A DNA stretch of 53,007 bases, from IMG/VR virus record IMGVR_UViG_3300031519_000027, positions 1 through 53,007 of that record. One strand, given 5' to 3'. The notes beneath the pieces were generated by a model that saw only the letters and a program-made list of their open reading frames with translations, ran no database searches and was not told the DNA's origin. Shown piece after piece: positions 493 to 51,528 of this stretch (positions within the stretch are counted from its first letter, which is position 1; every line of letters begins with the position of its first letter). This DNA comes from a virus (lineage: Duplodnaviria; Caudoviricetes). A program made the translations under genes and the position numbers.

Positions 493-528
493 CGTAAGTG
501 TTATATAGGCGACCCCCTATGGAGTAAC
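493..528 (+). promoter_or_regulatory. Class I archaeal promoter (BRE-TTATATAGG) with ATAGG-N6-CCTAT inverted repeat, leaderless start
   Basis: cgtaagtg TTATATAGG cgaccc CCTAT ggagtaac ATG; TATA at 501, ATG at 529. Confidence 0.8.
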
Positions 529-753
529 ATGGACGAAACACAGACCCCCAGCCGAAAAGCAAAGCGAACTATGGAAATGTACGAAGCGTGCATGTTCATG
601 GCGACATACACCGCAACCAAATACAAAGAGGGTTTCCCTTGCTCTATCACCGATTGTGGAGATGGTAAGGCAATCATCGTGTCAACCGAAGCGGCGTTTG
701 TCGATTGGAAGGAAGCAAACCGGTACACATCCCCTTGCGTCTATTGGCCTTGA
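529..753 (+). CDS. Small orphan protein (MDETQTP...)
   Basis: In-frame ATG 28 nt after TTATATAGG; track start 463 is probably too long. Confidence 0.65.
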   Translation: MDETQTPSRKAKRTMEMYEACMFMATYTATKYKEGFPCSITDCGDGKAIIVSTEAAFVDWKEANRYTSPCVYWP

Positions 754-790
754 GCAACAGGCTTTAGAACCTGTGGGCCAACCCCTGTCT

Positions 791-2626
791 ATGGCAGACG
801 AAGGGCGAAGGCGTTTTTGGCAACGAAAAATACCCAAGACCATCGAGCCTGTTTCCTTGGACTACAAGGCGTTGGCGTCGTTATCCAAAATAGGAACATA
901 CACCACTTCTCAAGGCCGGACAGGTAAGGCAGGTGGCGGCGCAAGTCCAACACTTGACTACTCGGTCATCCGTGAAATCAGTATGAAGTCAGAAGTCATT
1001 GCCGCAATCGTCAGACGAACTGTTGACGATGTATTAGGCAACGGATACCGATTTGACCTTGCCGAAGGTATCGAGGAAGCCAATCAGGCTGACTTGAAAA
1101 AATTACATCTATTCTTCACCATGCCAAACCCCGAAGACTATGGGAATGAATGGCTTGAATCATTAGTCTATGACCTATGCCTCTTTGGAGACGCATACTT
1201 GGAGATGGACGGTTCTCGTGATAAGTCGTCAGATAGTGGCGAGGATTGGGTCTTTGGGGGCAAGTTATCATCCATTTGGAATGTCCCTGCTGACACCATA
1301 GAGATTCTACCCGCACCACGATTACCTGCACCGCCGGAGATGGCATACATTCAGGTAATCAACGGTGAGACACGGCGATTTGCTTCAAACAAAATAATGC
1401 ACATCAGCAAATACAAACAGGGACGAGGATACGGAACTTCGCCCATGATACCCCTATTGCAAACCATAACCGGTATGTTGCACCTGTCGAATTACATCAA
1501 CGAACAATTCACAGGAACATTGCCGAAGACCATTCTCAATGTTGGTGATATTTCAAACAGTGAGATGAAGACAATGCTTGCCATGCTTGAGCAACAATTG
1601 AGTACCGGCAAATCACCATTCGGATTAGTCGCAGTCAATGGTGGAAAAGGGTTTGAAACACACCGTCTAATTGACTCAATCAAGGACGGACAGCACCTCG
1701 ACCTGCTCTACTACTACCGTGAAGAGATATGCGCTGTATTTGGCATCCCGCCGATGAAATTGGGTTGGGTTCAAACAGGTAAAATGTCGAACCCCGAATC
1801 TCAATTAGAGGCTTGGTATGATGTAGTCGAATCGTATCACCACCGTATATCGTCCTTAATCAATTATCGAATACTACCACTACTCGGAGTCACCGATTAT
1901 GTATTCAAGTTCAATACAATCAGGCCATCCAAGGAGAAGTTACAGGCGGAAGTGATTCGCTCTCAAGGTGCGGCGATAGCGTCACTAAGACAGGAGGGAG
2001 TCATCTCGATTAACGAGGCTCGGAAAATGCTTGGATACGATTTGATTCAAGACGACGATGCAAACGACCCATACTACCTATCGCCAAAATTAGCCATCAA
2101 CAGAGGTGCTGACTCTGATGAACCCGATGATGAAGAGGTCGAGCGCATGTATCGAAGATTGACCCCCCGTGATTTGAAACCGCCGCAGGGAGTGAGAGAT
2201 GCCTGCAAGACGGGCATACAACTCTTTGAGGACGGCTATGGAGGAAGTGGCCTTGAAGCCGCTACAATCCGTGAGGCTCGTGGTATCGTAAGAGGAAATA
2301 ATATCACCGTCGCCAAGGCCGGAAAAATGATTCGTTGGTGGGGCCGCAACTCAAGGTTCCTTGATGAGCCTAAAGACAGTGCCGCTTGGACTGCCGCCAT
2401 GTTATGGGGTGGTCGTGCGGGCAAGTCATGGGCTTCTAAATTGAAACGCGCTCAGGACTCAGAAGAAAAGGCCGAACCGGTATATCCTCACGAAATGTAT
2501 GACTGTGAAACGGGTGAGAGTTACACTGCAAACAATGAAGCCGAACATCAGGAATACGCTGACTTAGGCTATGTTCATTCGATGAGCGAATGTGAACTCA
2601 AAGAAGAGGGAGAGCATGGACTTTGA
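791..2626 (+). CDS. Portal protein with C-terminal accessory domains
   Basis: Portal-like motifs (MPNP, LCLFGDAYLE, GYGTSP, EEICAVFGIPP, GVISINEARKMLG); start reassigned to ATG 791, 28 nt after TTTAGAACC. Confidence 0.9.
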   Translation: MADEGRRRFWQRKIPKTIEPVSLDYKALASLSKIGTYTTSQGRTGKAGGGASPTLDYSVIREISMKSEVIAAIVRRTVDDVLGNGYRFDLAEGIEEANQADLKKLHLFFTMPNPEDYGNEWLESLVYDLCLFGDAYLEMDGSRDKSSDSGEDWVFGGKLSSIWNVPADTIEILPAPRLPAPPEMAYIQVINGETRRFASNKIMHISKYKQGRGYGTSPMIPLLQTITGMLHLSNYINEQFTGTLPKTILNVGDISNSEMKTMLAMLEQQLSTGKSPFGLVAVNGGKGFETHRLIDSIKDGQHLDLLYYYREEICAVFGIPPMKLGWVQTGKMSNPESQLEAWYDVVESYHHRISSLINYRILPLLGVTDYVFKFNTIRPSKEKLQAEVIRSQGAAIASLRQEGVISINEARKMLGYDLIQDDDANDPYYLSPKLAINRGADSDEPDDEEVERMYRRLTPRDLKPPQGVRDACKTGIQLFEDGYGGSGLEAATIREARGIVRGNNITVAKAGKMIRWWGRNSRFLDEPKDSAAWTAAMLWGGRAGKSWASKLKRAQDSEEKAEPVYPHEMYDCETGESYTANNEAEHQEYADLGYVHSMSECELKEEGEHGL

Positions 2627-3011
2627 GGTCAACGGAGGGGTCTTCAACAGAGCCGCCCGTTCCTTCGCATACTTGGGCGCATTCTTATCCGGCCCTGCTA
2701 CGATAGCCATGCAAAAGGAGTTCGGTGAAATCATCCTTGCGAAAGCAAAGCAGTTAGTGCCGGTTAGGACAGGTGCTTTGAAGAACAGTGGCCGTGTGGT
2801 CATGTCTCAAAGTCGAAAGGGCGTCGAAGTTAGGTTTGGTAATTCAGGAGTCCGATACGCTATGGTAGTCGAGTATGGACGATTCTCATACGCTCCATTT
2901 GCACCCCGACCATACATTAGACCCGCCGTCCGATACGCAAGCAAGAAGTTCAGAGCAAGCAAACAAATGAAGATAGCGGAGCGAAAAACACTGCCTCGCC
3001 GTTGGATTTAA
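2616..3011 (+). CDS. HK97 gp10-like tail completion/neck protein
   Basis: AKQLVPVRTGALKNSG...YAMVVEYG...PRPYIRPA signature; SD-like GAGGGAG before ATG 2616. Confidence 0.8.
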   Translation: MDFEVNGGVFNRAARSFAYLGAFLSGPATIAMQKEFGEIILAKAKQLVPVRTGALKNSGRVVMSQSRKGVEVRFGNSGVRYAMVVEYGRFSYAPFAPRPYIRPAVRYASKKFRASKQMKIAERKTLPRRWI

Positions 3012-3048
3012 CGACACGATTATATAGGTGGGGATTTGTATTCGGAAC
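3012..3048 (+). promoter_or_regulatory. Class I promoter
   Basis: cgacacga TTATATAGG at 3020, ATG at 3049. Confidence 0.75.
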
Positions 3049-3330
3049 ATGCGTGGACGAAAGGGCGGAGACAGAGTGTTGAATAAAACACCACATTGGG
3101 TCATAGAAGGATTGGCTCAAATGGAGGTCACTGAACCCATGCCAACACCCGACATTCTTCTCGAATTAGACCATTACAGGGCAGGACTCACCAATCCGAG
3201 TCGCAACCGTCACGCAACTCACCGATACTACGACCACAGCCCCCAATTCATCGTATTCGTATTGAAGCGATTGGGATGGCGCAACACCACACAGGGAACA
3301 GGCAAAGCCGCTATGTGGGTCAAGGGTTAG
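3049..3330 (+). CDS. Small basic hypothetical protein, possibly winged-helix-like
   Basis: Leaderless ATG 29 nt after TATA; fold is a guess. Confidence 0.55.
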   Translation: MRGRKGGDRVLNKTPHWVIEGLAQMEVTEPMPTPDILLELDHYRAGLTNPSRNRHATHRYYDHSPQFIVFVLKRLGWRNTTQGTGKAAMWVKG

Positions 3331-3362
3331 AGTCTTAAACCACTTCGCACAGACGATAGGGC

Positions 3363-4829
3363 ATGAGCCGCCTTAGTGATGCAGTCGTAATTGACTCTGA
3401 CGATTTATTCAACGCCATTGAGGGCGATTCAAAAGAGGCAGTGTTTGAATACCGATTCAACATGCCATTTACTGTTGACAAGGCACATAAGCCTGAACAT
3501 GACGAGGGTGACACAGTAGTCTATGGCCCCGTCTATGTTGGAGACGAGAAGATGCTCGACCGACACCGTGAATTGGTGGACGCCGAGGCAATCATGAAGT
3601 CTTGGGATACATACTCTAAGAATCCGGTTATCCTCTACAATCACCGAAAGGACTACGGCGTCATTGGTTTGATGGAGTCCGTTGAGATGGGTATGTTCAC
3701 AGCCGAGGACGGGACAGAGATGGAAGCAGTCTTTGGACGGGCAGTCATTGACAGTGGTGAAATTGACATCACTCGTAAAATCAACAAAGGTATGCTACGA
3801 GCATTCTCTATTGGCTTCATGGCTAAGGCCGCAGTCAAGGAAGGCACAGGCGACGAGGCATATATTAGATTCACCAACATCGAATGGATTGAGACGAGTG
3901 TGGTTGACATTCCCGCAAGTCCAAACGCACTGTTCAATGTGAGCAAGTCCCTCGTTTCCTATGGAGATGAGATTATTGCCGAGCAACCAAGAGCCGATTC
4001 AATCTCTGAAATGTCCGAAAAATTGGATTTGTTGATTACTCACCTCTCAACACCTATCGGAGACAATACCCTTAAAGACCATGTGCCGGAGGTAATTGCT
4101 ATGACCGAAGCGAACCTTACCGACGCAACAGAAGAAGAAGTGGTTGTTGAAGAAGCACTTATTGAATTATCAGAACCAACAGAAACCGTCTTACTAAAGA
4201 CAGAAGAGGTTCTCGAAGAAGAGGAAGAAGTTCTTGAAGAAGAAGTCCTTGAAGAAGAAGTCCTTGAAGAAGCCGAAGAGGCTGTCGAAGAAGAAGTTCT
4301 TGAAGAGGAAGTCCTTGAAGAAGAAGTTCTTGAAGAAGAAGTTCTGGTCGAAGAGGTTGCCGAAGCAACCGAAGAAGAATCACTTGGAGACGAACTCGTT
4401 GAATTATCTATGGATGAAGACACTCCAACACTCGCAATCCTCTCTGAAGTCGTCTTGGCTTTGTCACAGGTTGAAGAAAGTGTCAAATCAATGCACACCT
4501 TCTTTGCCGAGGTCGAATCACTCAAGGCCGCACTTGCTGAAAAGGAATCAATCATTGCCTCTATGACAGAGCAAACCAAAGCCGCCGAAGCCGAAGCCGC
4601 TATCGAAGCCGAGGTTTCACGCCGACTCGCTGAAAAAATGGCCGAAGCAAATCTCGCTCCGACCGCCGCAAGTCCAAAATCACTTTCCACATCGTCCAAG
4701 ACTCTGAAAGTCAAGACCGGAACAACCAAGCATGACCCAACGCCCGAAGTTAGCAACGGAATGGCGCACTTAGGCTCATGGTTGGAGAACCGACTTGGTG
4801 CTAAGAGAACCGGATATATGGATGAATGA
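3363..4829 (+). CDS. HK97-family prohead protease fused to acidic scaffold
   Basis: DRHRELV, NPVILYNH, GMLRAFSIGF, ETSVVDIPASPNA motifs; lies between portal and capsid genes. Confidence 0.9.
   Translation: MSRLSDAVVIDSDDLFNAIEGDSKEAVFEYRFNMPFTVDKAHKPEHDEGDTVVYGPVYVGDEKMLDRHRELVDAEAIMKSWDTYSKNPVILYNHRKDYGVIGLMESVEMGMFTAEDGTEMEAVFGRAVIDSGEIDITRKINKGMLRAFSIGFMAKAAVKEGTGDEAYIRFTNIEWIETSVVDIPASPNALFNVSKSLVSYGDEIIAEQPRADSISEMSEKLDLLITHLSTPIGDNTLKDHVPEVIAMTEANLTDATEEEVVVEEALIELSEPTETVLLKTEEVLEEEEEVLEEEVLEEEVLEEAEEAVEEEVLEEEVLEEEVLEEEVLVEEVAEATEEESLGDELVELSMDEDTPTLAILSEVVLALSQVEESVKSMHTFFAEVESLKAALAEKESIIASMTEQTKAAEAEAAIEAEVSRRLAEKMAEANLAPTAASPKSLSTSSKTLKVKTGTTKHDPTPEVSNGMAHLGSWLENRLGAKRTGYMDE
4101..4829 (+). 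CDS. Putative nested in-frame scaffolding protein (MTEANLTD...)
   Basis: GGAGGT at 4088-4093 and TTAAAGACC at 4072, 29 nt before in-frame ATG 4101; acidic coiled-coil sequence. Confidence 0.6.
   Translation: MTEANLTDATEEEVVVEEALIELSEPTETVLLKTEEVLEEEEEVLEEEVLEEEVLEEAEEAVEEEVLEEEVLEEEVLEEEVLVEEVAEATEEESLGDELVELSMDEDTPTLAILSEVVLALSQVEESVKSMHTFFAEVESLKAALAEKESIIASMTEQTKAAEAEAAIEAEVSRRLAEKMAEANLAPTAASPKSLSTSSKTLKVKTGTTKHDPTPEVSNGMAHLGSWLENRLGAKRTGYMDE
4203..4350 (+). repeat. Tandem 15-bp repeats encoding EEEVL pentapeptides
   Basis: Repeated GAAGAAGAAGT(T/C)CTT units. Confidence 0.9.
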
Positions 4830-4870: not shown

Positions 4871-5956
4871 ATGAGCCAAGAAATAGACTTTACAGAATTG
4901 ACAGAAAGAGTGAAGAACGCTCTCGCAGGAGCCGCCGCCGCAACCGGTGCTACCATGCTTCCAACTGAAACCGCCGAGGAAATTATCGGAATCGTGTATG
5001 AACGCAACTTCATGCGCTCCCTTTTCCCTGCAATGCCAATGTCCCGCCGAATCATGAAAGTGCCAAAATTGAGTGGCTCTGTTGACTTCCACGGAATGAC
5101 CCTCGGTAATGTTGACGCCGGAACTGCCGCTGATGAATCCCGTCACGCAACCGCAGAGGTTGACTTGGAACTCAAGACAATGATTGCAAACATCCCAATC
5201 GGTAACTACCTCGTCGCTTACGGTGTCGAAGGTTTGATGTCCGTCCTTCGTGATGACATTGCTTCCCGTCTCGCTTTCAACGAAGCAAGTCTCCTTATCA
5301 ACGGCGATACCAACATTGCCGCATCAGGAGTCGCAGGCGGCCCATGGCCCGCTTACTCAGGAAACATCAACGGAATCTATGCCGCTGTCGGAAACGCATC
5401 TGGTGTCTCCGCTACTGCAAACGATTACCTTCTTCTCTTTGACGGTCTTCGCAAATTGTCAACGGCTACAAATGTCGTCGCAGGTGGCGCATTCACTCTT
5501 GCTCACCTCCGAAACGCTATCTCCAACCTTGGAGTATATGCTGACAACCGTGATGACCTTGCTCTGATTGTTCCTCGAAACCTTGAAGTCCAACTTCTCG
5601 GTTTGACCGAACTTCAAACCGTTGACAAATACGGACTCGGTGCAACAATCCTCTCAGGCGAGATTGGACGAATCTACGGCATCCGTGTCTTTGGAACCGG
5701 TGCTATCGCAACCAACCTTGGATTGGACGGAACATTCGATGTAACCGCCGTAACTGCTGACAAAACAGTGGCTATCTTGACTCACATTCGCTCCCCAATG
5801 ATTGGCAACCCAACCGTTGCTGAACGCCGATTCAGTGTTGGATACGAAGATGAACCGACCAAAGACCGATTCGTGCTTATCCCTAAGCAAGACATTGCCT
5901 TTGCAGTCCGACATCCTGAAGCAATCTGTAAGATTGTTGGTATTGACACCATTTGA
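4871..5956 (+). CDS. Major capsid protein (HK97 fold)
   Basis: 361 aa after protease; GATMLPTETAEEII, LLINGD, DGLRK, GRIYGIRV, RHPEAI motifs; SD AGGAG. Confidence 0.9.
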   Translation: MSQEIDFTELTERVKNALAGAAAATGATMLPTETAEEIIGIVYERNFMRSLFPAMPMSRRIMKVPKLSGSVDFHGMTLGNVDAGTAADESRHATAEVDLELKTMIANIPIGNYLVAYGVEGLMSVLRDDIASRLAFNEASLLINGDTNIAASGVAGGPWPAYSGNINGIYAAVGNASGVSATANDYLLLFDGLRKLSTATNVVAGGAFTLAHLRNAISNLGVYADNRDDLALIVPRNLEVQLLGLTELQTVDKYGLGATILSGEIGRIYGIRVFGTGAIATNLGLDGTFDVTAVTADKTVAILTHIRSPMIGNPTVAERRFSVGYEDEPTKDRFVLIPKQDIAFAVRHPEAICKIVGIDTI

Positions 5957-5986
5957 TTCTGACTTTGCTTAGTGGCGTACTTCTCA

Positions 5987-7142: not shown

Positions 7143-7179
7143 CGACACTGTTATATAGGTGAGGCGACAACGAGTAGAC
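7143..7179 (+). promoter_or_regulatory. Class I promoter
   Basis: cgacactg TTATATAGG at 7151, ATG at 7180. Confidence 0.8.
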
Positions 7180-7491
7180 ATGCCGACCGAAATCGCCGAC
7201 CCGCAACCGCTAACCAAAGACCAACTGAACATATACGCAATGCAACTACGGAAGGTTGTTGGTCACATAAACGACTACTGCGTTGAACGCACTCATCTAC
7301 ACAGTGCCATGGCCCAGATTGGAGAAGGACAGAAAGCATACCTTGAAATCAATCCCCATTTGAAATATACCCCAAGCGGTTACAATACTGCAATGGATGG
7401 GATTCAAGCACTTCTCACTCTCAACTTTGCTCGCCGAGATAACCTCTTGAGAGAACACGAACGAATCCTCGAACTCATGATGGTGAGATAA
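7180..7491 (+). CDS. Helical hypothetical protein
   Basis: Leaderless start; stop overlaps next start (TAATG). Confidence 0.6.
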   Translation: MPTEIADPQPLTKDQLNIYAMQLRKVVGHINDYCVERTHLHSAMAQIGEGQKAYLEINPHLKYTPSGYNTAMDGIQALLTLNFARRDNLLREHERILELMMVR

Positions 7492-8051
7492 TGAACATTT
7501 TCGTTCTCGACACCAACCCTGAAACCGCCGCCCAAATGCAGTGCGATAAGCATATTCCAAAAATGATTCTTGAGTGCGCTCAAATGATGGTTTCAGCACT
7601 TCGCCGATATGGTGTAACCGATGAATACCTCGTTGACAAAGGCGTAGTGACTAAGGCCGGAACTCCATACAAAGAGACTCATAAGAACCACCCTTGCACT
7701 CGTTGGGCCGGTGACAGCCGTGACAATTTCAAGTGGCTCGCTCGTCATGCTCAAGCACTGCTTACTGAATACTCAAATCGCTTTGATAAAGTCCATGCTT
7801 GCAATGGCCCTGTCCATATCATGTCCTGTAAAGACCACATCATTCCCGAAGGTGGACTGACACAGTTCGCATTGGCTATGCCCGATGAATACAGACCCGA
7901 ACCTATTGATGGTGAAACGGTGTATCATGCTTACCCAAAGTTCGCAATCAAAGCATACCAAAAATACTACCACAGCAAGACATTCGCCAAGTGGGAGAAG
8001 GGAAGACCTGCACCTGATTGGTGGAAAGGTTTGACCGGCACTGTTATATAG
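7491..8051 (+). CDS. Pyrimidine-dimer DNA glycosylase / T4 endonuclease V-like family protein
   Basis: MNIFVLD...CDKHIPKMILECAQM...HKNHPCTRW...EY..RF.KVH...QFALAMPDEY...AYQKYY signature. Confidence 0.8.
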   Translation: MNIFVLDTNPETAAQMQCDKHIPKMILECAQMMVSALRRYGVTDEYLVDKGVVTKAGTPYKETHKNHPCTRWAGDSRDNFKWLARHAQALLTEYSNRFDKVHACNGPVHIMSCKDHIIPEGGLTQFALAMPDEYRPEPIDGETVYHAYPKFAIKAYQKYYHSKTFAKWEKGRPAPDWWKGLTGTVI

Positions 8052-8071
8052 GACACCCCCTATGGATATAC
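8036..8071 (+). promoter_or_regulatory. Class I promoter with ATAGG-N6-CCTAT repeat
   Basis: cggcactg TTATATAGG acaccc CCTAT ggatatac ATG; TATA 8044, ATG 8072. Confidence 0.8.
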
Positions 8072-8434
8072 ATGGTCAGCAACACATACGAGATAGCCCA
8101 AGCCGTGAGTGCATTGGAAACAATTCCTCTTGGTGAAACAATAATCGCCCCTTTGAACGCATGGTTCGGATTGGACGAGATGAACGCACCCATCACTCTC
8201 CACTACTGCGGAGTTACTTCTAACGATGATGAAGAAGTCGTCGTTATCTCCGGTAACAAATCATTCCCTGCATGGGCTGTTAGCGAAGTTATGGACGATG
8301 TTCACATGACCAATGCTGTGCGCTCTGAGCGTTCCACAGGCACTCGAATGGCTATCTCCTTTGGAATGAGCCGTGGCAAGACCTCACAGGCCGTTAAGGC
8401 GGCTTACTTGGCTACTTTCAAGCGAATCGCTTAA
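8072..8434 (+). CDS. Orphan protein
   Basis: Leaderless ATG 28 nt after TATA. Confidence 0.65.
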   Translation: MVSNTYEIAQAVSALETIPLGETIIAPLNAWFGLDEMNAPITLHYCGVTSNDDEEVVVISGNKSFPAWAVSEVMDDVHMTNAVRSERSTGTRMAISFGMSRGKTSQAVKAAYLATFKRIA

Positions 8435-9342: not shown

Positions 9343-9380
9343 CGACACTGTTATATAGGTGGGTTCGTCTTTCTACAAAT
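9343..9380 (+). promoter_or_regulatory. Class I promoter
   Basis: cgacactg TTATATAGG at 9351, ATG at 9381. Confidence 0.8.
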
Positions 9381-9599
9381 ATGCGAATAAAGAGCATCGG
9401 CCATGCCGAGTGGGAAATCCTAAACGAGATGATAAGTAATATAGCGATTGATGGACTCAAGCAAGAGATGTGTCCTGATGAACACGCTTCCAAGCGATTC
9501 GATAAAGCGGCGAGTAACATGGCGTCCATGCTCAATAAAATGCTATCAACACGGCGAAAGCACCTGCCTGCCGAACACACTCACTACAAAGGTGATTGA
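9381..9599 (+). CDS. Small orphan protein
   Basis: Leaderless start. Confidence 0.6.
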   Translation: MRIKSIGHAEWEILNEMISNIAIDGLKQEMCPDEHASKRFDKAASNMASMLNKMLSTRRKHLPAEHTHYKGD

Positions 9600-41287: not shown

Positions 41288-41324
41288 AGATACACTTATA
41301 TAGGGGTGGCACACAGGACTAAAC
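41288..41324 (+). promoter_or_regulatory. Class I promoter
   Basis: TTATATAGG at 41296, ATG at 41325. Confidence 0.8.
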
Positions 41325-43490: not shown

Positions 43491-43542
43491 CGGCACAGTT
43501 ATATAGGTGAGGCTACGACAATAGAACACAGGAGACATAAAC
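43491..43542 (+). promoter_or_regulatory. Class I promoter with short leader and SD, heading an operon of small genes
   Basis: cggcacag TTATATAGG at 43499; AGGAG before ATG 43543 (21-aa ORF). Confidence 0.7.
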
Positions 43543-43610
43543 ATGAGCGAATTGAAAATACGAATTGAAACAGACGAATACATCTACGAAGAATATACGG
43601 AGGCTTGAAT

Positions 43611-43985
43611 GTGGCACGAGGCAACAGCAAAGGCATACGCCGTGACAAATTGGTGACGGATGCAATTGACCTGATGAAAGGTGAGCCGTTCACGGCAAGC
43701 GACATCATGGATACAATCAAAACACTGACATCGAGAGCGCCGTCTGTTCGTGAAATCGGAATGGTTCTAAGCAAGAAAAAACGCTTGGAAGAGATTCGAT
43801 ACATCGGCGAAGTCGGCACGAAAGGCAATCGAGAGATGCTTGAAGCGGCGGGATTGACTCAAGCAGGTGTCCGTAAGTCGGGTCTGTATATTGCCGGTGC
43901 GCCACCAATAGGTGATGTCGTATCCAACAATCGAAAGGCCAAGTCGGCTCAAGTCATCAAAGACCTGACAGGTGAGGAAGAATGA
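43611..43985 (+). CDS. Putative winged-helix DNA-binding protein
   Basis: FTASDIMD...PSVREIGMVLS; GGAGG before GTG 43611. Confidence 0.55.
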   Translation: MARGNSKGIRRDKLVTDAIDLMKGEPFTASDIMDTIKTLTSRAPSVREIGMVLSKKKRLEEIRYIGEVGTKGNREMLEAAGLTQAGVRKSGLYIAGAPPIGDVVSNNRKAKSAQVIKDLTGEEE

Positions 43986-45915: not shown

Positions 45916-48243
45916 ATGGTTGCGTTGGGAGTATTGACTCCGCTTGAATTGAGAGCATTATTGATTGCCAATGGAATCACGCCAAGCCTAAACGCCACAT
46001 ACGCTTCTATGAGACGAGAGGCCATTATAGCAGGTCTAATGCCTTCACCATCATCACTCGGCGTTGCCGGTGTTACCGGCCCAGCCGGCCCAGCAGGAGC
46101 CGATGGAGCCGATGGAGCCGCAGGGGGAGCGACAGGCCCAGCCGGCCCAACAGGAGCCGCAGGAACAGATGGAACAGATGGAACAGCCGCTACGATAGCG
46201 GTTGGCACTGTAACAACAGGAGCCGCAGGTTCAGCGGCCACAGTTAGTAATGTGGGAACATCATCAGCGGCAGTCTTTGACATGTCTATACCACAGGGAG
46301 TGCAGGGTATCCAAGGGACTGCCGGAACAGACGGCACTGATGGTACAGACGGCACTGATGGTACGGATGGTGTATCGGCAACAATAGCGATTGGTAATAC
46401 AAACACTCTTGCGGCAGGTTCAGCGGCCACAGTCGCCAATGTCGGAACCCCATTAGCGGGGATATTCGATTTTGGAATCCCGCAAGGTATCCAAGGACTG
46501 CAAGGGACAGCGGGAACCGATGGTACAGATGGAACGGACGGCACTGACGGAACAGCGGCGACAATAGCGGCGGGAACTACGACCACTCTTGCGGCGGGGC
46601 AATCGGCGACAGTAACCAACGCAGGCTCGGCATCAGCGGCAACATTCAATTTTGGAATCCCTCAAGGGACAGCGGGTACTGACGGGACAGATGGCACAGA
46701 TGGCACAGACGGGACTGACGGGGCGGCGGCCACGATAGCGGTTGCCTCGACAGCAACGGGTGCGGAAGGAACAAACGCAAGTGTGGTCAATGCAGGAACA
46801 ACATCGGCGGCATCACTCGTATTCACTATACCAAGAGGTGATACAGGAACGGACGGAACCGACGGTACTGACGGAACCGATGGAACGGCGGCCACTATTG
46901 CCGTTGGAACAGTGGCAACCGGTGCGGCAGGTTCAGCGGCCACGGTAGTCAATTCAGGAACGAGTTCAGCGGCAGTCTTTGATATGTCTATACCAACAGG
47001 TGCAACAGGCGCAACAGGTTCAACAGGTGCGGCGGGTGCTGATGGCTATGAAGAGGGTACACAGCAAGATGACCTTGCAACGGGTTGGTGGACTTTTGCC
47101 GTTGTTAAAGGAAGAGATACGGGGGCGGCTCAAAGAGCGCAAGCGCAATTTTACATCACCGACTCTGATAACGGAAGACACCGAACTGCTCACATCATGG
47201 CGGGGCATCAATTTGGTAGAGATGGCTCCAATTTTATCACACTAATGGGAACTTCATCTTACGGAACCAATGTCCCGTATTCGGGATTTAGAATGAAAGA
47301 AGGGAACACTTACGACGGAGCCGCTTTACAAATTAACATTTCCAATGCCCTTAATCGGATAAGACAATTTATGATGTTTAATCTCCAAACAGGCAATGGT
47401 TGGACTCTCCTTGACATTTGGTTGCCTGACGCCGATACAGCGGGTCATGATGCCCTGCTTGGGTTTAGACCAACAGGACTACCACCTCCCAACCAAGGCG
47501 GGGATTATGTGGATTTTCCGACGAGCATGGCTGTTCGTAAAACCCTTGACCTTGATGGTGATGTTGCTGACCCTGACTCCGGCGGAGGTATTGGAACCAC
47601 AGGTGGAATCTTTGCCGACACAGGCGCACGATTTGGCGGGACTCTAAGACAGTCAATCACCTCCGCAGTTATTCACGCCGATAGTAATGGCGACCTTGAG
47701 GCTCTAACGATTGGTTCGGGTCTTGCGCTCTCATCGGGAACACTCTCGGCATCAGGAGGGGTCGCACCCATAACAGGTGAATATGAAAAGTATTACCTCG
47801 ACGGTACTATTGGAACTGTTGCGAACGGCGTAACAACGCAAATTACATTCGGGGGTGCGGGAAGTTCTTTTATTCCCCTCTATAACACACCCGTGACGGC
47901 TTGGACTGTCGCCGGTATCAATACACTTGATATTTTACAATCCGGCCTTTACCAATTCACCTTTAGTGCATTCTTAGCGGCATTGAGTGGCTCGGTTGCT
48001 GATTATCGCATAACCATTTCATCCAATCCGTCACTCACAGGTGACTTACTCTCCTTCCGAAACAGAACATACATCGTTGACAGATACCACGGTTCAGGCA
48101 CAACCACTGTTTATTTGACAGCAGGTCAGCAAGTGTATTTGAGCGTACTTAACAATGGTGCGAATTATCAAGTCGGTGGGTACATAGGCGCAGTTGGTGC
48201 GGGCGAACTCCGAACATTCCTTGATGTAAGGAGGTTTGAATGA
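45916..48243 (+). CDS. Collagen-like tail fibre with five ~38-aa repeat domains and a C1q-like head
   Basis: (GTD)n triplets alternating with AATIAVGT...FD.SIPQG repeats; SGLYQFTFSA and LTAGQQVYL C1q-like motifs; SD GGAGGT. Confidence 0.8.
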   Translation: MVALGVLTPLELRALLIANGITPSLNATYASMRREAIIAGLMPSPSSLGVAGVTGPAGPAGADGADGAAGGATGPAGPTGAAGTDGTDGTAATIAVGTVTTGAAGSAATVSNVGTSSAAVFDMSIPQGVQGIQGTAGTDGTDGTDGTDGTDGVSATIAIGNTNTLAAGSAATVANVGTPLAGIFDFGIPQGIQGLQGTAGTDGTDGTDGTDGTAATIAAGTTTTLAAGQSATVTNAGSASAATFNFGIPQGTAGTDGTDGTDGTDGTDGAAATIAVASTATGAEGTNASVVNAGTTSAASLVFTIPRGDTGTDGTDGTDGTDGTAATIAVGTVATGAAGSAATVVNSGTSSAAVFDMSIPTGATGATGSTGAAGADGYEEGTQQDDLATGWWTFAVVKGRDTGAAQRAQAQFYITDSDNGRHRTAHIMAGHQFGRDGSNFITLMGTSSYGTNVPYSGFRMKEGNTYDGAALQINISNALNRIRQFMMFNLQTGNGWTLLDIWLPDADTAGHDALLGFRPTGLPPPNQGGDYVDFPTSMAVRKTLDLDGDVADPDSGGGIGTTGGIFADTGARFGGTLRQSITSAVIHADSNGDLEALTIGSGLALSSGTLSASGGVAPITGEYEKYYLDGTIGTVANGVTTQITFGGAGSSFIPLYNTPVTAWTVAGINTLDILQSGLYQFTFSAFLAALSGSVADYRITISSNPSLTGDLLSFRNRTYIVDRYHGSGTTTVYLTAGQQVYLSVLNNGANYQVGGYIGAVGAGELRTFLDVRRFE

Positions 48244-48543: not shown

Positions 48544-48648
48544 ATGAAAGCGTGGTTAATTCAACGCCTCGTAATCTATGGAATAGCCGTTTTTTTGATA
48601 CCGAGCGTGCTTTACAGCATACTCTCTGATTGGTTATCGAAGTCGTGA
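48544..48648 (+). CDS. 34-aa single-TM peptide
   Basis: MKAWLIQRLVIYGIAVFLIPSVLYSILSDWLSKS, translated by hand. Confidence 0.4.
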   Translation: MKAWLIQRLVIYGIAVFLIPSVLYSILSDWLSKS

Positions 48649-48681
48649 GGTTTCATATAGGTGTGGCGGATAAGCCCCTCT

Positions 48682-49005
48682 ATGGAAAGAGACACCTTGC
48701 TTATGGGAATCGCCCTAATTGGAATTGTAGCCGCCGCACTTTATCGTGCTTACCTGAAATTGAAACCAAGCCTCGACCTTGCACTTGAAGACGGCAGTCT
48801 GTCGCTCGATGAAGTCATAGATATGAAGGATGAATTGATTGATGTTGCAGGTGATGTTGGCGACCTTATCAAGTCACTACCTTCCGCTTCTAAAATGAAG
48901 ACAATGAAGAAGGCCGACCTGTTGGCACTCGCTGAAAAGAACAATGTTGAATTGTCATCGGCGACTCTGACAAAGGCCCAAATCATTGCTGAAATGTTGG
49001 AGTGA
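48682..49005 (+). CDS. Membrane-anchored protein with C-terminal Rho-N/HeH-like helical domain
   Basis: N-terminal TM; MKKADLLALAE...TKAQII; TCATATAGGTG 29 nt upstream. Confidence 0.6.
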   Translation: MERDTLLMGIALIGIVAAALYRAYLKLKPSLDLALEDGSLSLDEVIDMKDELIDVAGDVGDLIKSLPSASKMKTMKKADLLALAEKNNVELSSATLTKAQIIAEMLE

Positions 49006-49904
49006 TTCGGGTGAAGAAGCCCGTTATTGCTGTTGACTTATACTGCGGCATTGGCGGGGTCACACAGGGTATGCTTGACGCAGGTGTCAAGGTCGTTCTA
49101 TCCATTGATGGATGGGATGTTGCCGAATACTTGCATAAAGTCAATTACCCAAGCGTTCCATTCGTTAAGCGTATGTTGGGCGAAGCCCCCACAGAGGATT
49201 TGGGTTTGATTCTAAAACACCTCCCTGATGACCGTGACTCGTATCACTTTCATCTACACGGCTCTCCACCATGCCAAGCCTTCTCCGGCCTTGCAGGTGC
49301 TAACAAACGGCACATATCGCAAGGCACGAAGAATGTCGACCACTTCCTATGGTTGGTCAAGCAATTGAAGCCTGACTCGTGGAGTATGGAGAATGTGCCT
49401 GCCACACGAAAACACTACCCTCACTTGCCACATCAAATGTTGGCGGCAAAGAATCATGGGGTTGCTCAATTGAGGAACCGATTCTTCGCAGGTGAAGGAT
49501 GGCGAGTGACAAAGTTCAACGAACACCTCGTCTCGTGGAACAGCGTGATTGCTGACCCAAGCATACCCATCGGTTCTGTTCTGAACACCGTGGGATGCTC
49601 TGTAACCACCTCTCCACGCTCTGAGGCGTCTGACAGCAATTGGGACTGCCCTTCGCTGACAATGACTCGACAATTGCCCTCTATACGCAAGAAACAACCC
49701 GACGGTTCGTTTGTCAAAATACGAAGTGTCACAGTGATGGAGATGGCTCTTTTGTTTGGGTTTCCAAGCACGATGAACTTGGATACTCCGTCATGGTTTG
49801 GGGCCAAGGACTTAACGATGGCGATAGGCAACAGTGTATGCCCGCCGGTGATGACTGCGCTTATCGAATCAATCATTCCAAAGACTTCAACAATTGACTC
49901 GTAG
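49002..49904 (+). CDS. DNA (cytosine-5) methyltransferase
   Basis: DLYCGIGG, GSPPCQAFS, MENV, QLRNRF, IGNSV. Confidence 0.9.
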   Translation: MIRVKKPVIAVDLYCGIGGVTQGMLDAGVKVVLSIDGWDVAEYLHKVNYPSVPFVKRMLGEAPTEDLGLILKHLPDDRDSYHFHLHGSPPCQAFSGLAGANKRHISQGTKNVDHFLWLVKQLKPDSWSMENVPATRKHYPHLPHQMLAAKNHGVAQLRNRFFAGEGWRVTKFNEHLVSWNSVIADPSIPIGSVLNTVGCSVTTSPRSEASDSNWDCPSLTMTRQLPSIRKKQPDGSFVKIRSVTVMEMALLFGFPSTMNLDTPSWFGAKDLTMAIGNSVCPPVMTALIESIIPKTSTIDS

Positions 49905-50196: not shown

Positions 50197-50349
50197 ATGA
50201 AGCGATACGATGCTGATGACCAACCTATTGTAAAGAAACACTCCTGTATGGTGTGCGAACGACAGGCACGAACGGGTAGCAAATCTCTCGTTGCCGACGG
50301 TTGGTTGGAGACTAAATCCGGTTTGGTTTGTCCTCAATGTCCTGAGTGA
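50197..50349 (+). CDS. 50-aa Zn-finger (CMVC...GW...CPQC), absent from the ORF track
   Basis: Translated by hand. Confidence 0.6.
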   Translation: MKRYDADDQPIVKKHSCMVCERQARTGSKSLVADGWLETKSGLVCPQCPE

Positions 50350-50394
50350 TTTTTGACGAAATGGTTAAAAGTGATAGGTTCCGTGGGTTATAGG

Positions 50395-50979
50395 ATGGAT
50401 GACGACGATTGGGACGACGGGCCTGAGTCCGAGGCGACTGCAATTGACACTTGGGGTTCGGGAAAAACCGAAGGAATTGACGACACTTTAATCCGGTGGA
50501 CTTCGATGTTGATGGTTCAAGGGTACAAAGATTCAGAGATAGTGCGGAAGTTGAATGAGGCCGATTTAGACTCGGCTCTCACGAGAGAGGGTCAGACTCG
50601 CCTTATGCGCTTGGCAAGACTCGAAGCGGAGGACTTACGCTACCTAACAGTGGCTCGTGCTGAAATGGGCGATACAGATTGGTTGAGGTTGGACTCTTAC
50701 AGCCGACGAAAGCGAATGCTGTCACTTACCGAGGGCATCGTTCATCAGGCTCATGCAATGGCGGATAATGTCAGCGCACTCAACAATGTTTCCTTCATGG
50801 TAGCAGGCTTAGTCAAGCAACAGGATGCGTTAGATAAGATGTCCGGCGCTCAGGATGCCAAACCTGCAATCACGGTGAACATCAATTATGACCCGATAGA
50901 CCAATTCAGGCAAGTGGTTCAAGAGGAACTACGAATCATTGATGTGGACTCAGAGGCTATCGAGAATGATAGCGATTGA
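50395..50979 (+). CDS. Putative terminase small subunit
   Basis: HTH-like GYKDSEIVRKL, helical middle, ITVNINYD strand; inference from architecture. Confidence 0.45.
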   Translation: MDDDDWDDGPESEATAIDTWGSGKTEGIDDTLIRWTSMLMVQGYKDSEIVRKLNEADLDSALTREGQTRLMRLARLEAEDLRYLTVARAEMGDTDWLRLDSYSRRKRMLSLTEGIVHQAHAMADNVSALNNVSFMVAGLVKQQDALDKMSGAQDAKPAITVNINYDPIDQFRQVVQEELRIIDVDSEAIENDSD

Positions 50980-51035
50980 GACAGGCGGAGTTACCAGACC
51001 ACGAGAACCCACATAAAACCAAATCGGGTTTGAAC

Positions 51036-51134
51036 TTAGCCGATACTTTTAGCCGATACCTTGGATATTGGCTGTGGATTTAGCCGATACTTCGTCAGAA
51101 TCGCTTGGATTTAGCCGATACTTTTAGCCGATAC
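51036..51134 (+). repeat. Five direct copies of TTAGCCGATAC
   Basis: Copies at 51036, 51049, 51080, 51111, 51124. Confidence 0.95.
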
Positions 51135-51491
51135 CTTTGATGTTCCGTGTGGATTTTCGCTCAGGCCGTCGGCTCGGTCGTTCCGCCCATGTTGAACATA
51201 GGGCTGACAGCCTATAAAGGTTACTATGCGACACTTTCCCGCCCGCTATTTCAGGCCCAGAGCGAAAGGGTTATAAAGGTATCGGTGTGGCATTCTCTTT
51301 AGGTCAAAGGAGATTGTCGCACCCATAAGACTATATACTCCCATCGTCACCGTTCAAGTGGATGCGGCTAACAATGGCAAGCCGTCCGAGGGGCCGCCGC
51401 CCCCATGTCCAGAATATCAGAAAATCGTTCATTTTTTACAGTTCGGGCCGACATTTTCAAACCAAAAAACGCTAAAAACGGCATCTATATA

Positions 51492-51528
51492 GGAAGTTGT
51501 TATATAGGGGATGCGTTTATGTCGTACC
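51492..51528 (+). promoter_or_regulatory. Class I promoter
   Basis: TTATATAGG at 51500, ATG at 51529. Confidence 0.75.

Follow-up and report, generated by a model that had tools for sequence, protein, structure and literature searches.

Recurrent, apparently archaeal-type promoters head small genes that vary among relatives of a magrovirus-like tailed virus

Results

The stretch of DNA analysed here (the window, 53,007 nt) represents about two thirds of an ~80-kb genome of a magrovirus-like tailed virus. Judging from its sequence, the source looks like a marine tailed virus of this kind, archaeal in appearance, and its host would be a Poseidoniales-type archaeon. The 9-mer TTATATAGG occurs 17 times in the window against 0.17 expected (100 dinucleotide shuffles; the largest count was 2 and none reached 17), and 16 of the 17 copies lie on the coding strand. 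The 9-mer is strict: there are 7 one-mismatch variants versus ~12 expected from 30 mononucleotide shuffles. Three of these 7 are TCATATAGG (26652, 28727 and 48653), two of them with an ATG at +29. The original prediction had listed 17 positions, all of them correct, and the repeat was confirmed in its counts, positions and geometry. This includes a CG placed 8 nt upstream of 13 of the 17 copies and an ATG 28–30 nt downstream of 14 of the 16 plus-strand copies (binomial p about 3e-17).

Relative to the first T of the motif, a G at -7 is invariant (17/17), an A is found at -4 in 14 copies and an A or T at +19 in 16. In the two plus-strand exceptions (11143 and 43499) the ATG is displaced to +42/+44 behind a 13–15 nt leader that contains GAGG or GGAG, and this Shine-Dalgarno-bearing leader starts precisely at the usual ATG position. 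Shine-Dalgarno-like motifs at -16 to -4 precede 2/14 class A genes, 0/2 genes behind TCATATAGG and 2/14 weak-box genes, versus 19/26 internal genes. Most structural and replication genes that are conserved have weaker boxes (GGTTAAGAACC-like and TGAAATAGG) at the same distance; the perfect 9-mer chiefly stands before small accessory ORFans. Sigma-70-type promoters were not enriched (23, 26 and 20 found versus 25.6, 23.9 and 14.4 in shuffles). We found no oligo-T or hairpin terminators at cassette ends, and the units are therefore not insulated.

All promoter copies are on the plus strand except one. At 493–753, a class A promoter (9-mer 501–509) precedes the predicted leaderless gene gA (529–753, 74 aa), whose best coding frame is frame 0 and whose homologue in G001 (48%) occupies the same place behind TTATATAGG. 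The unit at 3012–3330 (promoter 3020–3028) carries g4 (3049–3330, 93 aa, basic) directly 5' of the protease and capsid genes; g4 is a conserved promoter-led gene with 13 weak homologues (28–36% identity, plus the same strain) in unchanged position. The promoter at 7151–7159 (unit 7143–8051) is followed by g9 (7180–7491, 103 aa), an ORFan known solely from its own strain and matched, among 1.84 billion representatives, by its own cluster alone, and by g10 (7491–8051, 186 aa), of the pyrimidine-dimer DNA glycosylase family. Overlapping the g10 stop, the promoter at 8044–8052 (unit 8036–8434) heads g11 (8072–8434, 120 aa), which G002 lacks; G001, G003, G004 and others have homologues (39–51%) preceded by the local promoter. 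At 9343–9599, the promoter (9351–9359) precedes g14 (9381–9599, 72 aa), which heads the conserved g14–g16 group and has a homologue at 29 loci.

The unit at 11135–11382 comprises a promoter (11143–11151), a 13-nt leader with GAGG and g17 (11185–11382, 65 aa, Cys-rich and acidic). No homologue of g17 was found in 84 related sequences, and G003 and G004 have the same promoter and leader in front of unrelated genes. At 13202–13534, the promoter (13210–13218) precedes g20 (13238–13534, 98 aa, 11 Cys). Promoter 19796–19804 (unit 19788–19995) heads g22 (19825–19995, 56 aa), without a homologue among the relatives, and is immediately followed by the next promoter (19996–20004; unit 19988–21785), which heads no microgene; it precedes a core gene, the XPD/DinG-like helicase g23 (20025–21785, 586 aa). 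In G002, g23 has 84% identity and the orthologous promoter is TGAAATAGG. The promoter at 21794–21802 (unit 21786–22131) precedes g24 (21823–22131, 102 aa) and then g25. The sole minus-strand copy (24347–24355; feature 24205–24363) sits in the largest intergenic region with no ORF behind it. A non-coding transcript of ~110 nt, up to a T6 run near 24215, is possible; the region has a non-significant fold z-score (-1.56) and is poorly conserved in G002.

Further along, the promoter at 28077–28085 (unit 28069–28716) heads g31 (28105–28716, 203 aa), with a C-terminal DUF6011 matched in Pfam and PHROG. The variant promoter TCATATAGG at 28727–28735 (unit 28719–29655) heads the conserved g32 (28756–29655, 299 aa), and the identical variant is present at the orthologous G002 site. 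Two cassettes follow in tandem: g35 (31268–31504, 78 aa; promoter 31240–31248, unit 31232–31504), whose predicted fold is confident yet without a match, and g36 (31549–31707, 52 aa; promoter 31521–31529, unit 31513–31707). The unit at 41288–41510 consists of a promoter (41296–41304) and g44 (41325–41510, 61 aa). At 43491–43985, the promoter (43499–43507) and a GGAG leader are followed by a 21-aa micro-ORF (43543–43608) and g47 (probable GTG start 43611, ATG 43674, end 43985), whose G002 homologue appears leaderless, 30 nt behind TTATATAGG. A second TCATATAGG unit (48645–49005; promoter 48653–48661) carries g58 (48682–49005, 107 aa, N-terminal hydrophobic helix), with 40–42% identity in G001 and G002. 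The last unit (51492–52041; promoter 51500–51508, with a second TATA-like CTATATAGG ahead of it at 51485) carries g65 (51529–52041, 170 aa), with 51% identity in G002.

Small and unrelated cargo genes had been predicted, and this was borne out. Behind 12 of the 16 plus-strand copies the first gene encodes 52–125 aa (the micro-ORF at 43499 and products of 170, 203 and 586 aa make up the rest), we found no paralogy among these genes, and most are ORFans. With a codon model built from the virus itself, frame 0 outscores the other five frames in all 17 cassette ORFs, and 2 of the 17 cargo proteins, the glycosylase and the DUF6011 protein, have a Pfam match. The opening ATGGACG[AG]A is found in 6/16 cassettes versus 0/52 other genes, and a leader, CTACGATAGAACAGAGG, is common to three genomes with unrelated cargo. 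Across 85 sequences, promoter-led ORFs (n = 141) have a median length of 88 aa versus 137 aa for others, and 19% of them belong to widely conserved clusters versus 58% of others. The further claim that nearly all copies drive small genes in cassettes was overstated: most do, but TTATATAGG also stands before the helicase gene and before conserved structural operons (g4-protease-capsid, g11–g13 and g14–g16), so the 9-mer is not specific to accessory genes, and the units have no terminators of their own.

We compared the window with related genomes. Five relatives contain 41 T[TA]ATATAGG sites, all on the coding strand (control counts were 0), and in four of these relatives an ATG lies at +28–30 behind 28 of 35 motif sites. 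Variants of the motif follow lineage (TAATATAGG, TTATATACC and ATTGATATA). Orthologous promoters keep 8–9 of 9 core bases, and their flanks match at 4–17/25 and 8–16/30 positions. In the collinear relative G002, 4/14 first genes behind class A promoters are conserved versus 13/13 behind weak boxes (Fisher p = 1.5e-4; small genes only, 2/11 versus 13/16, p = 0.002; gene lists compiled by hand).

The comparison of relatives that had been proposed as a check on cargo turnover came out positive: the promoter stays at shared junctions and the cargo is missing, replaced or moved. Three promoter-plus-gene units are clean indels versus G002, at g16|g18, g19|g21 and g29|g32. The g17 cassette is a clean insertion (gap 385 versus 114 nt), as is that of g20 (372 versus 103 nt), which starts right behind the g19 stop and ends right before the weak g21 promoter; the g31 insertion has a conserved GC hairpin on one side and, on the other, the TCATATAGG promoter that heads g32. 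At two junctions G002 retains the promoter with unrelated cargo: g34|g37, where g35 is missing and a single TTATATAGG precedes an unrelated 81-aa gene, and g43|g45, where the gene behind TTATATAGG encodes 45 aa and is unrelated (z = -1.1, against 16.8 and 35.3 for the positive controls). At the g24 junction, G002 keeps the promoter and g25 and lacks g24; L099, which is more distant, has a g24 homologue (62%) there. For four cargo genes, other relatives have homologues at different junctions: g35 (41–60%) just downstream of g8 in L075–L080, g20 (39%) in L063, behind TTATATAGG and ~2.4 kb before the portal gene, g31 at 2.7–4.0 kb upstream of the portal gene in 14/16 related hits, and g10 in L067, L068, L080 and G002. 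Those of g35, g20 and g31 have a local promoter ~29 nt upstream (ATTGATA-type in 5/5 full-length g35 ORFs examined), and neither of the two g10 homologues examined has a TATA-like box before it. By hand count, the hot-spot from g3 to g5 shows about 21 gene orders in 44 loci and that from g8 to g14 about 12 in 22 loci; 26 of 37 non-core promoter-led clusters keep one context. No contig in one DNA-like run bridges across a cassette.

In a second lineage (G006/G009, 88–92% nucleotide identity), the sole clean presence/absence indel is a 150-nt unit consisting of the promoter module and a 33-aa ORF in G009. This unit lies between the copies of a 66-nt direct repeat; the repeat covers the promoter module, with the upstream stop codon at one end and the first 8 coding bases at the other.

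Discussion

We consider it likely that TTATATAGG belongs to a strong archaeal-type core promoter heading accessory gene units that evolve as wholes, by gain, loss, replacement and relocation. The promoter would consist of a BRE (the invariant G and the frequent A three bases apart) just 5' of the TATA box TTATATAGG, an A/T position ~10 nt before the start and a conserved '...AAC' initiator. Host RNA polymerase with TBP and TFB would read it and initiate at the A of the ATG 28–30 nt downstream or at a neighbouring base, and the mRNA would therefore be leaderless; about a third of the viral genes may begin behind such promoters. The prediction of an archaeal-type promoter on leaderless genes is supported by the geometry, the BRE signature and the Shine-Dalgarno dichotomy. 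A passage of PMC11065993 presents a BRE with G and A three bases apart as a mark of strong TFB binding, and part of PMC4983044 describes haloarchaeal promoter elements and leaderless starts. The label "euryarchaeal virus" went too far: the promoter type is supported, but a euryarchaeal host is something that we only infer.

The same promoters might contribute nothing particular to gene flux. Small genes would then be inserted by illegitimate recombination or born de novo between genes, their survival would require a strong promoter, and the sameness of the promoters would reflect selection for strength. Consistent with this, the insert borders of g17 and g20 (g16|g18 and g19|g21) share merely 2–5 nt with the empty site, g24 uses a resident promoter and brought none of its own, and g9, without relatives anywhere, may have arisen de novo or evolved very fast. 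Similarity of TATA-ATG spacers within the genome is not in excess either (mean identity 9.73 versus 9.76 of 24); a given spacer type recurs in other genomes as much as in its own, which gives no hint of concerted evolution through frequent exchange inside a genome. We nevertheless regard this explanation as rather unlikely, given the 66-nt repeats of an entire module, first codons included, around the G009 cassette, the 40–44 nt modules, 88–90% alike, at 8044, 31240 and 31521 that bound tandem cassettes, and the promoter, leader and first codons common to unrelated cargo (CTACGATAGAACAGAGG; ATGGACG[AG]A).

Two other readings concern the transcription machinery. A T7-like single-subunit polymerase or a virus-encoded initiation factor could start at GG and yield a 20-nt leader. 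The TATAGG half of the motif after CGAC-like bases may resemble T7-class promoters, the 9-mer is much stricter than usual archaeal TATA boxes, and its variants are lineage-specific. A 20-nt leader would, however, leave the fixed ATG distance and the missing Shine-Dalgarno motifs unexplained, and where the ATG is displaced the Shine-Dalgarno leader starts exactly at its normal position. No TFIIB-family gene was detected in five relatives, three of them 100% complete (the control was positive in four archaea), and RNA_pol (PF00940) had no match in them either, as in its own control. We judge such machinery very improbable.

The possibility that the virus is a bacteriophage and the motif a bacterial element, such as an extended -10 box or an operator, seems remote. 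One relative has a GroEL-type chaperonin, the top-scoring models for the helicase are bacterial YoaA/DinG (scores below their cut-offs), and a MAG labelled Legionellales contains the G002 contig, probably through a binning error. Against it, a -10 box ending 21–22 nt before the ATG would, with the spacing that we assume, give a ~14-nt leader without Shine-Dalgarno in 14/16 genes; sigma-70 consensus matches show no enrichment, the CGA(C/A)A ahead of the motif fits a BRE, archaeal Hef and Xpf models give the top scores for the ERCC4-HhH nuclease, and the gene content is of magrovirus type. That the repeat is a replication, packaging or site-specific recombination site and no transcription signal is close to negligible: it is exact and dispersed, with a geneless copy at 24355, but 16/17 copies and 41/41 sites in relatives are co-oriented with genes at a fixed distance from a start codon, and no recombinase is linked to the copies.

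Returning to the archaeal-type promoter, its promoter-plus-gene units would occupy only some of the junctions that separate conserved genes and be gained, lost, replaced and relocated whole as the virus group evolves; with no terminator of their own, they would also feed transcription into the downstream gene. Turnover may proceed by homologous recombination between 45–66 bp promoter modules, for which there is one clear case. The original interpretation was partly supported: promoter type, small ORFan cargo and turnover find support, and a dedicated mobility "system" does not; no recombinase was linked to the cassettes. Immediate-early expression of the cargo, or its action on the host in takeover or anti-defence, is putative. 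In this archaeal-looking virus, small genes behind identical strong promoters come, go and swap places between related viruses.

The virus shares with published magroviruses a family B polymerase, GroEL, GT4, a 6-kb ORF and a PKD protein. Excerpts of PMC11065993 describe small early anti-defence genes of Sulfolobales viruses that are preceded by conserved strong promoters. The cassette turnover resembles that of bacteriophage morons or add-on genes, and the recombination between promoter modules that we propose is like that of the PeSL elements of T4-like phages; moron-like or PeSL-like turnover is supported at the sequence level by the G002 comparisons, the relocated cargo and the 150-nt G006/G009 indel.

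An exact nine-base box at a fixed distance from start codons

The window of 53,007 bases contains the exact 9-mer TTATATAGG, referred to here as the perfect box or class A promoter, 17 times; a single copy is on the minus strand (24347-24355) and the other 16 are on the plus strand. Dinucleotide-preserving shuffles gave 0.17 copies on average, and none of 100 shuffles reached 17. One-mismatch variants numbered seven against about 12 expected, so the 9-mer is stricter than chance. One such variant, TCATATAGG, occurs at 26652, 28727 and 48653 and has an ATG at +29 in two of the three cases.

In the alignment of the 17 sites, counted from the first T of the box, a G at -7 is invariant, A occupies -4 in 14 sites and an A/T position at +19 is kept in 16; further positions are partly conserved up to the start codon. 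Of the 16 plus-strand copies, 14 are followed by an ORF whose start, an in-frame ATG, stands 28-30 nt beyond the first T (binomial p ~3e-17 against three positions at 1/64 each). The exceptions are the sites at 11143 and 43499, where the ATG is at +42/+44 with GAGG/GGAG before it. The original prediction of 17 dispersed copies with regular geometry was thus borne out by the counts, the shuffles and the ATG spacing, and the CG that it placed 8 nt upstream corresponds to a C at -8 in 13 of 17 sites followed by the invariant G. Before g65 (51485-51508), CTATATAGG is followed at a distance of 15 nt by TTATATAGG, a tandem of TATA-like boxes.

Many conserved genes outside the 9-mer set have an A/T-rich box of different spelling (weak box, class B) at the same distance from the ATG and without a Shine-Dalgarno motif. 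Boxes resembling GGTTAAGAACC precede g5 (protease), g6 (capsid), g12, g16, g21, g26 and g39, and TGAAATAGGTGGGA precedes g37 and g45. These second and third box families lie about 30 nt upstream of conserved structural and replication genes, namely those at 3363, 4871, 8461, 9950, 13573, 22339 and 32794 (also 31739 and 41537). At the orthologous sites inspected in the main collinear relative, G002 (g18, g21, g26), the weak boxes are kept. Leaderless starts seem to be used for about a third of the genes of this virus. The perfect 9-mer is one promoter class among several, which may differ in timing. The weak boxes may be a separate temporal class, a late assignment of class B being drawn solely from which genes bear the box.

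We then compared the box between genomes. Five relatives hold 41 sites of the pattern T[TA]ATATAGG, every one on the coding strand, and none of a control pattern. More distant lineages spell the box TAATATAGG, TTATATACC or ATTGATATA. At eight orthologous junctions the core keeps 8-9 of 9 bases, and identity in the flanks is 4-17 of 25 and 8-16 of 30 positions; the helicase promoter, TGAAATAGG in G002, is an exception to this conservation. In the close pair G006 and G009, one orthologous promoter (G006 original coordinates ~46166-46174, minus strand; G009 43827-43835, minus strand) has AGGGGC or ACCCCC after TTATATA depending on the genome, so the GG/CC flank can flip while the site is retained.

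The 20-nt spacers between TATA box and ATG form a few discrete families, for example CCCCCTATGGATATAC, CCTACGATTAAAC and ACACAGGACTAAAC in the window and G001-G004. These are common to non-orthologous sites of diverged genomes, with up to 22 of 24 bases identical, and may be operators or initiator variants. A test for concerted evolution of the spacers was negative, spacer types being common between genomes as much as within them. A scan of IMG/VR for one spacer type matched only L009 and L106, both from the same strain as the window, G003, and an unrelated contig of 35% GC; the last is a chance match inside a gene.

The lone minus-strand box faces away from g28 in the largest intergenic region (24319-24647, 329 nt). 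No ORF lies behind it and the predicted RNA fold is not significant (z = -1.56). Other features of the region are a perfect 12-bp hairpin with T5 behind it (24475-24501) and, at ~24571-24612, a tract rich in purines. In G002 the hairpin and neighboring blocks are conserved, and the presumed ~110-nt minus-strand transcript is not. The region may act as a hub of regulation or as an origin of replication. The adjoining annotated-looking ORF g27 (24160-24318) has a negative coding score.

The promoters are probably of an archaeal, leaderless type

If transcription starts at the ATG, geometry places the TATA box at about -29 to -22, a G/A pair just upstream of it and an A/T position at about -10. 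The spacing from TATA box to ATG is that of archaeal promoters, in which an A/T-rich TATA box is centered about 26-27 nt ahead of the transcript start, at 14 of 16 window sites and at 28 of 35 sites in four relatives (ATG at +28-30), a test of geometry only. Upstream of the TATA box is a purine-rich BRE with G and A three bases apart, and CGAAA-like bases occupy this place in the relatives. Haloarchaeal promoter elements, as given in excerpts of the published work, are TATA, a BRE 'CGAAA' and a -10 'WW' (PMC4983044). The preferred TFB site, in the accessible text of another study, has G and A three bases apart, the strongest TFB-binding arrangement (PMC11065993).

We searched for Shine-Dalgarno-like tetramers at -16 to -4, excluding 13 ORFs with a negative coding score, uncertain start or contig-edge position (g1, g2, g13, g27, g30, g41, g56, g57, g62, g63, g64, g66 and g68). 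Such tetramers precede 2 of 14 class A genes, neither of the two TCATATAGG genes and 2 of 14 weak-box genes; among internal genes they precede 19 of 26. Where the ATG is displaced, a conserved leader starts exactly at the usual place of the ATG (AGAGG, following ...GAAC), an arrangement found in three genomes.

We considered which polymerase could read these sites. Sigma-70-type matches show no enrichment. TTATATAGG bears some resemblance to T7 promoters; the T7-type polymerase model PF00940 had no match in five relatives, its control being likewise silent everywhere. A TFIIB-family protein is encoded by none of five relatives, of which three are complete (the control was positive in four archaea). 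TTATATAGG is likely read by the host's own transcription machinery.

Metatranscriptome contigs (two runs, one sample) fall on the capsid region, g9, g12, g14/15 and g17. They carry neither strand nor transcript starts, and coverage or gaps were thus not interpreted. In one RNA library (run X19), a contig of depth 16.6 has its first base exactly on the ATG of g12 at 8461, behind a weak box; as evidence of a leaderless start this is a weak hint at most. For g9 (7180-7491), public gene calls (the ESM Atlas record and the 83-aa representative P0001) place the start at residue 21; leaderless starts in these viruses seem to escape standard gene callers. The motif offers a way to assign true gene starts in such uncultivated viruses.

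Gene content and presumed host

The window is a linear record estimated to be 66% complete, with nearly all genes on the plus strand. Pfam matches identify a portal (662-2626), a prohead protease (3363-4829), an HK97-type capsid (4871-5956), a GT4 glycosyltransferase (11484-12842), an XPD/DinG-like helicase (20025-21785), a PD-(D/E)XK nuclease (29661-30893), a tape measure protein (33757-36087), a PKD-bearing fibre of 1729 aa (36089-41278), a primase-polymerase (41537-42697), an ERCC4-HhH nuclease (42694-43488), a collagen-like protein (45916-48243) and a C5 methylase (49071-49904). The ERCC4-HhH nuclease scores best with archaeal Hef and Xpf models, below their cut-offs. An ORF of 2047 aa (13573-19716) has no Pfam, PHROG or PDB sequence match and is 61-64% conserved in G002 and G004; it is probably the '6 kb LamGL-like' magrovirus protein mentioned in excerpts of PMC11706807. 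We detected no tRNA and no Rfam family. The strongest hairpin of the window lies near its right end (52904-52935, a 14-bp stem followed by T7) and is a candidate for a true terminator.

The capsid gene has 91 relatives in IMG/VR, of which 80 were kept (61-100% identity), and complete relatives measure 80.6-82.8 kb. Family B DNA polymerase was found in four of the five relatives searched and a GroEL-type chaperonin in one of the five. The accessible text on magroviruses lists a 6-kb ORF, GT4, PD-(D/E)XK, a PKD protein, GroEL and polymerase B (PMC11706807). Taken together, and on gene content alone, the window and its relatives have the tailed module, family B polymerase, chaperonin and 80-100 kb genome size of magroviruses. 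Megablast of 25 kb against cultured phages returned no match, and tblastn with the capsid gave one weak match (27%, Microcystis phage). No cultured phage is close. The host is inferred from the magrovirus-like gene content and would be a Poseidoniales-type archaeon. The only host label encountered is that of a Legionellales MAG containing L098, the same 55.5-kb contig as G002; this label is likely a binning error and could mislead host prediction.

Genes behind the perfect box score as coding and mostly match no known family

We scored ORFs with a codon model trained on window genes of at least 250 aa. Each of the 17 cassette ORFs has its highest score in its own frame of the six, as is true of 27 of 33 other small ORFs, and the codon usage of the genes behind the perfect box (cargo) is indistinguishable from that of resident genes. 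The cassette genes are not paralogues of one another, g4 and g15 being the only pair below E = 0.01 (5e-4). Two of the 17 exceed a Pfam cut-off: g10 (7491-8051; pyrimidine-dimer glycosylase family, 1.4e-6) and g31 (28105-28716; DUF6011). In PHROGs, searched without g10, g31 alone matched, apart from a marginal match of g58. For g9 no relative beyond its own cluster was found among 1.84 billion representatives, and the ESM Atlas gave no usable result for g9 or g11. The N-terminus is strongly conserved in the family of g35 (31268-31504); a g35 model built from four sequences reaches pLDDT 90 and has no convincing structural neighbor (best Foldseek E = 0.97, best VIA Z = 3.8). The AlphaFold model of g47 is poor (pLDDT 46). 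Several cargo proteins are rich in cysteine, including g17, g20 and gA. An anti-defence role of the cargo is a guess by analogy with a system described elsewhere (PMC11065993).

Locus L009 is 99.7% identical to the window over 7.1 kb except for a divergent patch of ~200 nt within g10 (7741-7951), and run X13, a DNA-like sequencing run, has a similar replacement joint at 7553-7704. The patch in g10 looks like a small intragenic mosaic.

Cargo turns over at shared junctions

We compared the window with G002 (55.5 kb), which is collinear with it from g5 to g65. According to gene lists compiled by hand, G002 has a syntenic homologue of all 13 weak-box genes and of only 4 among the 14 genes that come first behind the perfect 9-mer (Fisher p = 1.5e-4). 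The difference persists among genes of at most 125 aa with a positive coding score, where 2 of 11 genes led by the 9-mer have a syntenic G002 homologue against 13 of 16 in the comparison group (p = 0.002). The motif splits a conserved core, with weak boxes, from a fast-turning accessory set with the perfect box.

Three promoter-plus-gene units are clean insertions relative to G002. The gap holding g17 (11185-11382) measures 385 nt in the window vs 114 nt in G002, that holding g20 (13238-13534) 372 nt vs 103 nt, and that holding g31 859 nt vs 341 nt. Each insert begins directly after the upstream stop codon and ends directly before the next gene's own box. A further gene, g24, sits between a promoter and g25, both of which the two genomes share, and is absent from G002. 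At the junctions between g43 and g45 and between g34 and g37, TTATATAGG is retained in both genomes and the genes behind it are unrelated (comparison z-scores of -1.1, -0.4 and 0.9 vs 16.8 and 35.3 for positive controls). Variable cargo at shared junctions with a persisting promoter, as the original prediction anticipated, is therefore seen against G002 in the form of insertions and replaced cargo.

Cargo genes are also found at other positions in related IMG/VR loci. Homologues of g35 (41-60%) stand directly after g8 in L075-L080, where all five full-length ORFs examined lie behind ATTGATA-type boxes. A g20 homologue (39%) in L063 lies ~2.4 kb upstream of the portal gene behind TTATATAGG, and of 16 g31 matches, 14 place the homologue 2.7-4.0 kb upstream of that gene; a further g31 copy may reside in the missing third of the window. 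The homologues of g35, g20 and g31 have a local promoter ~29 nt before the ATG. Those of g10, the second gene of its cassette, stand between g3 and g5 in L067, L068 and L080, and no TATA-like box was found at promoter distance before the two g10 homologues examined (L068 and G002). A g24 homologue occurs at 62% identity in L099, which is more distant than G002.

We assembled a crude pan-genome of 85 sequences with 1456 ORFs, in which an ORF with T[TAG]ATATA at -33 to -26 was taken as promoter-led. The 141 promoter-led ORFs have a median length of 88 aa vs 137 aa for the rest, and clusters present in at least 15 loci hold 19% of them vs 58% of the rest. Promoter-led members occur in 37 non-core clusters; the number of these clusters found in more than one context is 11, which is an upper bound because a missing core gene also alters the context. 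Hand counts in a locus set that is centered on the capsid gene and includes near-duplicates give ~21 gene orders in 44 loci for the hot spot from g3 to the protease and ~12 gene orders in 22 loci for that from g8 to g14. Cassette turnover between relatives is well supported by these observations.

Cassette limits and a possible route of exchange

The collinear close pair G006/G009 (88-92% nucleotide identity) has a single clean presence/absence indel of at least 60 nt. It is a 150-nt unit in G009 consisting of one promoter module (promoter, spacer and first codons) and a 33-aa Cys-rich ORF, at a place where G006 has a single module. A direct repeat of 66 nt flanks the unit and spans the upstream stop codon, BRE, TATA box, spacer, ATG and first 8 coding bases; 64 of 91 compared positions are identical, contiguously over the module. 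The window likewise has cassettes between two promoter copies, at 7151/8044 (g9-g10), 19796/19996 (g22), 28077/28727 (g31) and 31240/31521 (g35), and similarity among the modules at 8044, 31240 and 31521 is 88-90% over 40-44 nt. The similarity reaches into the genes: ATGGACG[AG]A opens 6 of 16 cassettes and none of 52 other genes (p = 7e-5), and in three genomes unrelated cargo has a common promoter and leader, with the first four residues also the same in two.

The borders of the g17 and g20 inserts share homology of only 2-5 nt, which counts against recombination between promoter modules at these sites. Also against such recombination, spacer types recur between genomes as much as within them, and no promoter-to-promoter joint was found in the one DNA-like run compared with the window. 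Run X13 has loose ends at 8044 and 8075 that might be taken for recombinant joints; the paralogous promoter copies at 31240 and 31521 account for them, and none of the X13 contigs spans a cassette junction. Promoter-mediated homologous exchange is plausible, and clear in one case only.

We found no terminator at cassette ends, where there is neither a run of at least five T nor a hairpin, and hairpin-plus-T sites are not enriched. Transcription therefore probably runs on into the next gene, which follows after 26-46 nt and usually has its own weaker box. The original prediction of mobile promoter cassettes holds as regards archaeal-type leaderless promoters and cargo turnover. As a mark of mobile genes it needs qualification, for the same 9-mer also precedes the helicase gene and three conserved groups, g4-protease-capsid, g11-g13 and g14-g16.

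Comparison with known systems

The window and its relatives represent accessory cassettes led by archaeal-type leaderless promoters, with documented turnover, in marine magrovirus-like viruses. In the accessible text of two magrovirus papers the words promoter, TATA, leaderless and intergenic have no occurrence (PMC5434244, PMC11706807), and a full-text literature search for 'magrovirus' with 'promoter' returned no paper.

Like haloarchaeal and general archaeal leaderless promoters, as far as excerpts of that work describe them, these have, in this order, a BRE (CGAAA-like), a TATA box, a -10 'WW' and, presumably, a start at the start codon (Babski et al. 2016, PMC4983044). They differ in a far stricter TATA element, an exact 9-mer followed by GG or CC, and in spacers that fall into discrete cross-genome families such as CCCCCTATGGATATAC and CCTACGATTAAAC.

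Since the window has no integrase, prophage expression is not at issue. A moron, in the concept of Juhala and Hendrix for lambdoid and other tailed phages, is said to be an extra gene with its own promoter and its own terminator. As reported for morons, g17, g20 and g31 are single extra genes between genes that are adjacent in G002, each with its own predicted promoter 28-42 nt upstream; unlike what is reported for morons, no terminator of their own was found, and codon usage does not set them apart from the resident genes.

The promoter-early stem-loops (PeSL) of T4-type phages are described, in the excerpts available, as mobile regulatory cassettes (Arbiol et al. 2010, PMC2839356; Comeau et al. 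2014, PMC4122927). In both systems a repeated strong promoter motif marks hyperplastic regions of small ORFans between core blocks, and indels or replacements between close relatives end in the motif, here as the 150-nt unit with its 66-nt repeat. PeSLs are of sigma-70 type with a stem-loop terminator, whereas here the promoter is an archaeal BRE/TATA, no stem-loop terminator was found and the module reaches into the first codons of a leaderless gene. The cassettes thus lie outside the classical definitions of both morons and PeSLs, having neither their own terminator nor a stem-loop, although their behavior is alike.

A stronger reading, which we put forward tentatively and regard as rather unlikely in full, is that marine archaeal tailed viruses hold an archaeal counterpart of the T4 PeSL, with a dual-purpose module, early counter-defence cargo and sub-regulons set by spacer families. 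The module of 45-66 bp would comprise the upstream stop codon, BRE, exact TATA 9-mer, typed spacer, ATG and first two or three codons, and would act at once as the virus's strongest promoter and as a transferable region of homology. By means of this homology, leaderless microgenes could be excised, inserted and swapped between co-infecting genomes. The cargo would form an early counter-defence and host-takeover arsenal against one of the ocean's most abundant archaeal groups, and the discrete spacer families would be the operators of sub-regulons. If promoter modules are a recombination substrate, modular shuffling of the PeSL type would extend from bacteria to archaea.

The closest archaeal parallel is found in viruses of Sulfolobales/Thermoprotei, in which, according to the portion of the study available, conserved strong early promoters precede small anti-defence genes (Bhoobalan-Chitty et al. 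2024, PMC11065993). Its main text does not use the terms euryarchaeal, haloarchaeal or Caudoviricetes; the supplementary lists might include such viruses. As in that system, a near-identical BRE and TATA core with its surroundings is repeated within one genome, the G/A spacing of the BRE is the same, and the promoter precedes small genes without mutual relation or known function. By the logic validated for Sulfolobales viruses, the motif picks out, in each genome, about a dozen genes as candidates for an early or anti-defence role. Unlike the viruses of that study, this is a marine Caudoviricetes-type tailed virus with a presumed euryarchaeal host, and the cassettes are scattered genome-wide among core genes, some of which the promoter also heads, rather than clustered. 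Set beside that system, what is documented in this group is the turnover of the cargo between relatives.
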